Source: Escherichia coli
GTDB lineage: Bacteria > Pseudomonadota > Gammaproteobacteria > Enterobacterales > Enterobacteriaceae
Assembly (NCBI RefSeq): GCF_022846255.1
Contig: NZ_AP025682.1
Direction: 5' to 3' (one strand)
Length of the DNA stretch: 64,000 nt
In this document: positions 57,001-60,000 of the stretch, one piece after another
How positions within the stretch are numbered: the first letter of the stretch is position 1
Layout: every line of letters starts with the position of its first letter
Position numbers: made by a program

Positions 57001-60000
57001 CATCAGCCTGCTGGTACTGAACAAACACGCCGAACAGGCCATTTTGCATGAAAACGCCGAAAGCCAGAATGAGCCAGTAAGCGCCCTGGAAAAACCTGAG
57101 GTTGCACCACAGGTCAGTGTTCCCACAATGCCATCAGCCGAACCGAGGTGACAGCGTGAGCATGGATATAAGCGATTTTTATCAGACATTTTTTGATGAA
57201 GCGGACGAACTGTTGGCTGATATGGAGCAGCATCTGCTGGTTTTGCAGCCGGAAGCGCCAGATGCCGAACAATTGAATGCCATCTTTCGGGCTGCCCACT
57301 CGATCAAAGGAGGGGCAGGAACCTTTGGCTTCAGCGTTTTGCAGGAAACCACGCATCTGATGGAAAACCTGCTCGATGAAGCCAGACGAGGTGAGATGCA
57401 ACTCAACACCGACATTATCAATCTGTTTTTGGAAACGAAGGACATCATGCAAGAACAGCTCGACGCTTATAAACAGTCGCAAGAGCCGGATGCCGCCAGC
57501 TTCGATTATATCTGCCAGGCCTTGCGTCAACTGGCATTAGAAGCGAAAGGCGAAACGCCATCTGCAGTGACCCGATTAAGTGTGGTTGCCAAAAGTGAAC
57601 CGCAAGATGAGCAGAGTCGTAGTCAGTCACCGCGACGAATTATCCTTTCGCGCCTGAAGGCCGGCGAAGTCGACCTGCTGGAAGAAGAGTTGGGGCATCT
57701 GACAACGTTAACTGACGTGGTGAAAGGGGCGGATTCTCTCTCGGCAATATTACCGGGCGACATCGCCGAAGATGACATCACAGCGGTACTCTGTTTTGTG
57801 ATTGAAGCCGATCAGATTACCTTTGAAACAGTAGACGTCTCGCCAAAAATATCCACCCCACCAGTGCTTAAACTGGCAGCCGAACAAGCGCCAACCGGTC
57901 GCGTGGAGCGGGAAAAAACGACGCGCAGCAGTGAATCCACCAGCATCCGTGTAGCGGTAGAAAAGGTTGATCAATTAATTAACCTCGTCGGCGAGCTGGT
58001 TATCACCCAGTCCATGCTTGCCCAGCGTTCCAGCGAACTGGACCCGGTTAATCATGGTGATTTGATTACCAGCATGGGGCAGTTACAACGTAACGCCCGT
58101 GATTTGCAGGAATCAGTGATGTCGATTCGCATGATGCCGATGGAATATGTCTTTAGTCGCTATCCCCGGCTGGTGCGTGATCTGGCGGGAAAACTCGGCA
58201 AGCAGGTAGAACTGACGCTGGTGGGCAGTTCCACCGAGCTCGACAAGAGCCTGATAGAACGCATTATCGACCCGCTGACCCACCTGGTACGCAATAGCCT
58301 CGATCACGGTATTGAACTGCCAGAAAAACGGCTCGCCGCAGGTAAAAACAGCGTCGGAAATTTAATTCTGTCTGCCGAACATCAGGGCGGCAACATTTGC
58401 ATTGAAGTGACCGACGATGGGGCGGGGCTAAACCGTGAGCGAATTCTGGCAAAAGCGGCCTCGCAAGGTTTGACTGTCAGCGAAAACATGAGCGACGACG
58501 AAGTCGCGATGCTGATATTTGCACCAGGCTTCTCCACGGCAGAGCAGGTCACCGACGTCTCCGGGCGTGGCGTCGGCATGGACGTCGTTAAACGTAATAT
58601 CCAGGAGATGGGCGGTCATGTCGAGATCCAGTCGAAGCAGGGTACTGGCACTACGATCCGCATTTTACTGCCGCTGACGCTGGCAATTCTTGACGGCATG
58701 TCCGTACGCGTTGCGGATGAAGTTTTCATTCTGCCGCTGAATGCTGTCATGGAATCACTGCAACCCCGTGAAGCCGATCTGCATCCACTGGCTGGCGGCG
58801 AGCGGGTGCTGGAAGTGCGGGGTGAATATCTGCCTATCGTCGAACTGTGGAAAGTGTTCAACGTCGCGGGCGCGAAAACCGAAGCCACCCAGGGAATTGT
58901 GGTGATCTTACAAAGTGGCGGTCGCCGCTACGCCTTGCTGGTGGATCAATTAATTGGTCAACACCAGGTTGTGGTTAAAAACCTTGAAAGTAACTATCGC
59001 AAAGTCCCCGGCATTTCTGCTGCGACCATTCTTGGCGACGGCAGCGTGGCACTGATTGTTGATGTCTCCGCCTTGCAGGCGATAAACCGCGAACAACGTA
59101 TGGCGAACACCGCCGCCTGAATGAGTAAAAAGGTAACAATATGACCGGTATGACGAATGTAACAAAGCTGGCCAGCGAGCCGTCAGGCCAGGAATTTCTG
59201 GTATTTACCCTTGGTGATGAAGAGTACGGTATTGATATTCTGAAAGTGCAGGAGATCCGTGGCTACGATCAGGTGACACGGATTGCGAACACGCCAGCGT
59301 TTATCAAAGGCGTCACGAATCTGCGCGGCGTTATTGTGCCGATTGTTGACTTACGAATTAAGTTCAGCCAGGTGGATGTGGACTATAACGACAACACGGT
59401 AGTTATCGTCCTGAATCTCGGACAGCGGGTGGTCGGCATCGTGGTTGACGGCGTCTCAGACGTGCTTTCATTGACGGCGGAGCAAATTCGTCCGGCACCG
59501 GAATTTGCCGTGACGCTTTCAACCGAATATCTCACAGGACTGGGCGCACTCGGCGACCGCATGTTGATTCTGGTGAACATCGAAAAACTGCTGAACAGCG
59601 AAGAGATGGCGCTGTTAGATAGCGCGGCGTCAGAAGTGGCGTAATTCTCCCGATTTCCTCAATTGCAATGAACCCGATGACCTGCGCATCGGGTTTTTTA
59701 TTTCAGTTTCGCGGCGGGTGGCATCAGCAATAAAGTTTCCCCCTTCCTTGCCGATAACGAGATCAACTTGTTTTCAGGAAGGTGCCTTATGATTAACCGT
59801 ATCCGCGTAGTCACGCTGTTGGTAATGGTGCTGGGGGTATTCGCACTGTTACAGCTTATTTCCGGCAGTCTGTTTTTTTCTTCCCTTCACCATAGCCAGA
59901 AGAGCTTTGTGGTTTCCAATCAATTACGGGAACAGCAGGGCGAGCTGACGTCAACCTGGGATTTAATGCTGCAAACGCGCATTAACCTGAGTCGTTCAGC

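Follow-up and report, generated by a model that had tools for sequence, protein, structure and literature searches.

Expression of cheA in Escherichia coli K-12 has long served as an example of a gene whose single reading frame is entered at two places. The shorter product, CheA-S, lacks the first 97 residues of the kinase CheA-L, begins at Met-98, and takes CheZ to the poles via Leu123 and Leu126 (PMC7750401). In K-12 derivatives it has been described as "initiated at codon ATG-98"; it is abolished by the M98L substitution and is inessential for chemotaxis (PMC7696710). CheA-S is produced from its own endogenous ribosome-binding site (PMC2716512), and the ratio of CheA-L to CheA-S varies with growth, between 4:1 and 1:1 (PMC1447658). 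Co-expression of CheA's long form with its short one in the Enterobacteriaceae is stated in PMC3579733, which cites McNamara & Wolfe 1997. In addition, cheA and infB have been named together as genes with in-frame internal starts (PMC12350097, PMC11005335). Here we consider the cheA gene, and in particular its two translation starts, in a stretch of 64,000 nucleotides from an E. coli genome (assembly GCF_022846255.1, contig NZ_AP025682.1), referred to as the window. Coordinates are those of the window, and features lie on the plus strand unless stated otherwise.

Our reading of the locus, to which we assign a probability of roughly 0.93, is that it represents a standard E. coli cheA with two unaltered in-frame starts, giving both CheA-L and CheA-S. 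The two-start cheA is already known textbook biology, annotated in the reference genome, and this reading reveals nothing new.

The two translation starts

An earlier note on this DNA had placed the start of cheA at a GTG 5 nucleotides (nt) past the motB stop and had identified an in-frame ATG as Met98, and both placements are borne out by the coordinates and the reading frame. The motB coding sequence (CDS; 56225-57151, 308 codons), found in the list of open reading frames (ORFs) and annotated at the homologous place in strains LF82 and K-12, ends with a TGA at 57149-57151. Four bases, CAGC, separate this stop from the GTG initiation codon of CheA-L (57156-57158), the G of which is thus the fifth base past the stop; this codon is also the RefSeq CDS start in LF82 and K-12. 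The Shine-Dalgarno (SD) sequence for the long form, GAGGTGA (57146-57152), overlaps the motB stop and would form a duplex of -7.2 kcal/mol with the anti-SD. An open frame of 654 codons runs from the GTG to 59120, and this long form (57156-59120, 654 amino acids) is recognized both by its translation and by five Pfam domains.

The ATG at 57447-57449 is in frame with the GTG, since (57447-57156)/3 = 97, which makes it codon 98, the initiation codon of CheA-S. An SD-like AAGGA (57438-57442), made up of the Lys95 codon AAG and part of the Asp96 codon GAC, lies 4 nt before it, with a duplex energy of -5.4 kcal/mol. The short form (57447-59120) would be 557 amino acids long and keeps the residues Cys120, Leu123, and Leu126 in its truncated P1 remnant. 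It does not include His48 (CAC, 57297-57299), the phosphorylation site of CheA, which is found in CheA-L within the motif AAHSIKGG.

The RefSeq record of K-12 MG1655 carries two cheA CDSs with a common stop, YP_010283911.1 (654 amino acids) and NP_416402.2 (557 amino acids). Their starts are 291 nt apart, which is the GTG-to-ATG distance in the window, and the second begins at the base homologous to 57447. Between 57100 and 57500, the window differs from K-12 at only three positions (cheA nt 66, 79, and 168), all of them synonymous and more than 60 nt away from both GTG 57156 and ATG 57447; each start codon is flanked by identical sequence of at least 55 nt on its upstream and at least 65 nt on its downstream side. 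From cheA nt 169 to 407 there are no differences at all, and in the whole gene 31 of 1965 nt differ. At the protein level, this leaves E227D, N259S, and K484E as the only changes. Given this identity with K-12 at the two start codons, the strain likely makes both CheA isoforms. The assignment of CheA-L to the GTG after motB and of CheA-S to Met98, as the earlier note had it, is likewise supported by the K-12 RefSeq annotation and by the literature (PMC7750401, PMC7696710, PMC2716512, PMC3579733).

An in-frame ATG is by itself unremarkable, given that cheA contains 18 of them and 52 in-frame ATG, GTG, or TTG codons altogether. Two observations weigh against the two-start reading. First, Met98 is only 9th among these 52 start-like codons by its anti-SD pairing energy. 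Second, cheZ, whose product would be the partner of CheA-S, lies beyond the end of the window and was examined in LF82 only, which is 99.3% identical here but is another strain; the CheZ of LF82 is the same as that of K-12, with the apical-loop aromatics W97 (Trp97) and F98 (Phe98). The call of two starts rests on homology with K-12 and not on prediction from the sequence. Indeed, predicting the short start by SD strength alone fails, as Met98 holds rank 9 of 52 and Met81 has a stronger SD-like motif. The region around the short start does rank 21st of 645 in predicted single-strandedness, and its GC content of 40% is the 15th lowest of 635. No Ribo-RET or N-terminomics evidence on cheA was found in the supplements of 10.1101/520783, PMC11005335, and PMC13245402.

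The ATG of Met81 (57396, codon 81) is preceded by GAGGTGAG (57385-57398), the same motif as the SD of the long form, at a spacing of only about 3 nt. Codons 77-80 lack conservation at their synonymous sites among the Enterobacterales, and predicted accessibility there is average (rank 246 of 645). Judging from these features, GAGGTGAG is probably a chance SD-like motif, and use of Met81 as a minor third start is possible.

Conservation of the start regions

Conservation within the species was scored with 61-mers over complete genomes of E. coli, about 5,380 of them for the two starts. The 61-mer centred on the short start is identical in 5,371 of 5,378 genomes (99.9%) and that centred on the long start in 5,331 of 5,378 (99.1%). 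Control 61-mers at cheA nt 600, 1200, and 1800, which are arbitrary round positions, are identical in 536/4,831, 3,471/5,310, and 3,148/5,375 genomes, respectively (11-65%). The claim that both starts are conserved has therefore held up, the starts being base-identical to K-12 and near-invariant in the species. For a longer piece of 901 nt (56900-57800), 5,376 of the 5,426 complete genomes of E. coli have a match that covers 80% or more of it, and LF82, NRG 857C, and six other genomes are 100% identical to it, with motB and cheA annotated there.

To look across species, one genome per species was scanned with a DNA pattern for the His48 motif, yielding 120 cheA loci, 36 of them from Enterobacterales; this sample of 36 contains no Salmonella, Shigella, or further Escherichia species. 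Met98, Cys120, and the context ETKDIMQ(E/D)QL are present in all 36 Enterobacterales loci, and Met98 is absent from Alcaligenaceae, Nitrosomonas, and most other outgroups.

Several outgroups have start-like codons near this position. The Halomonadaceae-like loci (L055, L122, L022, L099, L069, L018, and others) mostly have Met97, about half of those with AAGGA(C/T) abutting the ATG, while Vreelandella/Halomonas loci (L006, L092, L063, L100, L068) have Met98 in the context KDIMHEQL. Alcaligenaceae loci (L090, L036, L081, and others) have a GTG at position 97. No synonymous constraint was seen at the putative in-frame starts of these non-Enterobacterales groups. Two species, Enterobacter sp. BIGb0383 (L028/L029) and Pluralibacter gergoviae (L042/L043), each have two cheA loci with the His48 motif, and Met98 is present in both copies.

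Synonymous constraint at codons 90-101

Synonymous variation was scanned in 25 full-length Enterobacterales cheA genes from 25 species, using normalised synonymous entropy in windows of 12 codons. Codons 90-101 (57423-57458), which we designate the internal translation-initiation region, have the lowest entropy of all 464 windows, 0.377 compared with a gene mean of 0.679, and each of the 15 windows with the lowest values includes some part of codons 81-109. The permutation p value of this dip is 5e-6. Furthermore, amino-acid-matched resampling did not reproduce it in 200,000 trials (0/200,000), the observed value being 5.58 bits and the expected one 10.42 ± 0.91. The dip is absent in the outgroups at these codons: the values are 0.78 vs 0.75 in the Halomonadaceae-like group, 0.57 vs 0.63 in Alcaligenaceae, and 0.76 vs 0.65 in Nitrosomonas. 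Selection thus acts on the mRNA around the short start beyond the protein code, in a region that is also AU-rich and predicted to be accessible. Taken together, the near-invariance within E. coli, the conservation of Met98 across species, and the constraint on synonymous sites mark the Met98 site as special, above what chance would give.

These data bear on the proposal that Met98 is simply an internal methionine conserved for structural reasons in helix D of P1 and that ATG 57447 is little used, or not used at all, as a start here. The modest SD pairing of Met98 would fit such a proposal, as would the conservation of the surrounding peptide at the protein level, by which the methionine could be kept for folding, and the lack of a canonical SD before Met98 in most other Enterobacterales. 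However, the most constrained synonymous sites are those surrounding Met98, which selection on the protein cannot explain, and this constraint is missing in clades without Met98. In addition, the start region is base-identical to that of K-12, where M98L abolishes CheA-S (PMC7696710), and the short CDS is annotated in the K-12 RefSeq record. A purely structural role for Met98 is consequently highly improbable.

A different question is whether the constraint at codons 90-101 could arise from something other than initiation, such as an RNA hairpin, the target of a small RNA or of an RNase, or an antisense gene. A 9-bp AU-rich stem can be drawn between CUGUUUUUG (57423-57431, codons 90-92) and CAAGAACAG (57450-57458, codons 99-101), which would place the SD and the AUG in an 18-nt loop, and the most constrained codons coincide with the arms and loop of this stem. 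However, such a hairpin lacks statistical support (-8.4 kcal/mol, z of -1.1, with 22 of 200 shuffles folding equally well). Its alifold energy of -2.35 is near the gene mean of -2.06 and comes without compensatory changes, the pairing is disrupted in five of seven divergent loci, and no Rfam family is found at or near the cheA starts. As to an antisense gene, a minus-strand ORF (57182-57448) does begin exactly opposite codons 97-98. This candidate was rejected as the cause: its ATG exists only where Ile97 is ATC, which is ATT in most species, and several species have stops in the frame. Moreover, an antisense gene would need the constraint to continue through codons 10-80, which it does not. 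An origin of the constraint outside initiation is therefore unlikely, and internal initiation at Met98 is preferred. If so, the internal initiation region is the clearest footprint of synonymous constraint in cheA, which supports the use of such footprints for finding internal starts elsewhere.

The Shine-Dalgarno sequence before Met98

The conservation of the region does not extend to the AAGGA itself. Among the 36 Enterobacterales loci, the Lys95 codon AAG (57438-57440), which creates the AAGGA, occurs in E. coli (L056 and the window) and in Enterobacter sp. Ag1 (L015), and in no other. The other 33 have AAA, mostly in the form AAA GAT ATT ATG and without a canonical SD. These AAA-type loci still keep CTG TTT TTG GAA ACN AAA GAT ATT ATG CAG GAA near-invariant. 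It may be, then, that internal initiation in the family depends chiefly on an AU-rich, unstructured context, to which E. coli has added an SD.

A more specific hypothesis is that the internal cheA start would be an old, SD-independent element of the Enterobacterales, consisting of the conserved, AU-rich CUGUUUUUGGAAACNAAAGAUAUUAUGCAGGAACAG and possibly of an AUG presented in a hairpin loop. The AAGGA would then be a recent gain in the Escherichia lineage, through a change of AAA to AAG, that became fixed in E. coli and increases or re-tunes the ratio of CheA-S to CheA-L. We regard this hypothesis as tentative and somewhat doubtful. In any case, the SD before Met98 is lineage-specific in this sample and so could serve studies of how the isoform ratio is set.

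The start of the long form

The junction between motB and cheA, GAGGTGA(T)-N3-5-GTG-AG(C/T)-ATG, in which the SD encloses the motB stop, is found in 29 of the 36 Enterobacterales loci. It contains a second candidate start, ATG 57162 (codon 3), and it might be argued that CheA-L begins there, as a protein of 652 amino acids, instead of at GTG 57156, or that both codons are used. ATG is intrinsically a superior initiator to GTG, the GAGGTGA lies about 11-12 nt upstream of ATG 57162, which is within the working range, and predicted folding is weaker in the 60 nt around codon 3 than in the 60 nt around codon 1. In addition, seven divergent loci have the stop of the upstream gene at codon 1-2, so that their cheA must begin at the ATG corresponding to codon 3. 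These are the loci of Yersinia, Rahnella, two Rosenbergiella, and [Erwinia] mediterraneensis, together with, in Enterobacter sp. BIGb0383 and in Pluralibacter gergoviae, the second cheA copy.

However, codon 1 is GTG in 28 of the 32 alignable Enterobacterales loci, with a fixed spacer of 4-5 nt after GAGGTGA(T) that is near-optimal for GTG. The spacing in E. coli also favours GTG, with about 6 nt after GAGGU compared with about 12 nt for ATG 57162. RefSeq starts both the K-12 and the LF82 protein at the GTG (654 amino acids), and the "97 residues missing" of the literature, like the Met-98 numbering, presumes a GTG start (PMC7750401). A start of CheA-L at codon 3 thus seems quite improbable for the window, and GTG 57156 is retained as its initiation codon, although a minor use of ATG 57162 beside it is possible.

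A model for expression of the two isoforms

These considerations lead to the following model. The cheA gene would be the third on a motA-motB-cheA-cheW mRNA. Ribosomes would initiate at GTG 57156 by means of the strong SD GAGGTGA and produce the 654-residue kinase CheA-L; translation of motB and cheA is probably coupled, because the SD of the long form overlaps the motB stop. Other ribosomes would initiate independently at ATG 57447, within the part of the gene that codes for P1/Hpt, using the AAGGA that precedes it by 4 nt, where the sequence is AU-rich and only weakly structured. The product of this internal initiation would be the 557-residue CheA-S, without residues 1-97 and hence without His48. 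If the proteins behave as they do in K-12, CheA-L would be the kinase that autophosphorylates at His48, whereas CheA-S would not be phosphorylatable, yet would dimerise and join the receptor arrays. The exposed P1 remnant of CheA-S would bind the phosphatase CheZ, thereby concentrating phosphatase activity at the receptor array. The residues expected for CheZ binding, Leu123 and Leu126, are present in the CheA of the window, as is Cys120.

The domain structure of the protein is in keeping with these roles. The CheA of the window has the canonical five-domain architecture of P1 (Hpt), P2 (CheY-binding), P3 (dimerisation), P4 (HATPase), and P5 (CheW-like), and the corresponding Pfam matches, Hpt 8-100, CheY-binding 161-223, H-kinase_dim 261-324, HATPase_c 372-508, and CheW 514-640, all exceed the curated cut-offs. 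Solved structures of CheA P1 and P1-P2 are matched as well (PDB chains, E values down to 1e-103), and P1 has the phospho-acceptor motif HSIKGG, with the histidine at codon 48.

A practical consequence concerns databases. Automatic annotation of relatives gives the 654-residue CDS only, but both products appear in the curated record of K-12, so that homology would allow CheA-S to be annotated as well. Beyond correct annotation, the finding matters little.

Operon context and source strain

The motA-motB-cheA-cheW operon context is present, with ORFs at 55341-56228, 56225-57151, 57156-59120, and 59141-59644 in the ORF list and matching annotation; the last of these, cheW (59141-59644), is the final gene of the operon. 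The wider gene order is flhD, flhC, motA, motB, cheA, cheW, tar, a tap remnant, cheR, and cheB.

The consensus for sigma-28 (FliA) is TAAA-N15-GCCGATAA. A scan of the window for the exact consensus found none ahead of motA. A sigma-28-type promoter-like site, TAAA-N15-GCCGATAT, with one mismatch to the consensus, is located at 55145-55171, within the 3' end of flhC and upstream of motA. From its sequence and position, it is presumed to be the promoter of the motA-motB-cheA-cheW operon and thus the source of cheA mRNA. Exact matches to TAAA-N15-GCCGATAA occur ahead of tar (59731-59757) and at a fli site near 29.2 kb (29152-29178, minus strand), two being found where 0.03 would be expected by chance.

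The tap remnant (61496-61723) has lost 1,374 nt from its interior, in frame, at a repeat of 15 nt, with junction microhomology at 61615-61629. It is an intact ORF of 75 codons, in which Tap residues 1-45 are fused to about 30 C-terminal residues; the remnant in LF82 has a TTG start codon and a frameshift. This deletion layout is present in 1,058 of 5,426 E. coli genomes, none of them 100% identical to the 321-nt stretch of the window and the best 99.1%. For phylogroup B2, the loss of Tap has been published (PMC12623472). Rfam matches in the window include the C0465 small RNA (59664-59741, minus strand), which lies in the cheW-tar spacer on the strand opposite to these genes and shares about 10 nt with the promoter motif of tar, DsrA (7688-7774), and three tRNAs (41153-41451).

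Aligned with LF82 (NC_011993.1), the window is 99.3% identical over 50899-63801 (12.9 kb) and 97.7-98.8% identical further upstream; the stretch at about 20.4-22.5 kb and the first 2.1 kb or so do not align to the LF82 segment compared. By these alignments, the source strain is related to LF82, yet distinct, and may be mosaic.

Comparison with known systems

The closest described system is cheA of K-12 (b1888), with which the window shares the operon position, the start codons, the SD motifs and their spacing, and all of His48, Met98, Cys120, Leu123, and Leu126. It differs in 31 of 1965 nt and in three amino acids, which are far from the starts, and its neighbourhood has tap deleted. Other Enterobacterales cheA genes are alike in their Met98 context (36/36) and, in 29/36, in the GAGGTGA-N4-GTG-AGC-ATG junction with motB. 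In contrast, 33/36 do not have the AAGGA SD of E. coli, and in seven the long form begins at the ATG corresponding to codon 3; in Enterobacter sp. BIGb0383 and P. gergoviae it is the second copy that falls in this divergent group and starts in this way. Finally, infB, which encodes the isoforms of IF2, resembles cheA in that one ORF gives two products with a common C-terminus, the internal start having its own ribosome-binding site. However, the protein family and function of infB are unrelated to those of cheA, and the analogy is one of mechanism only.

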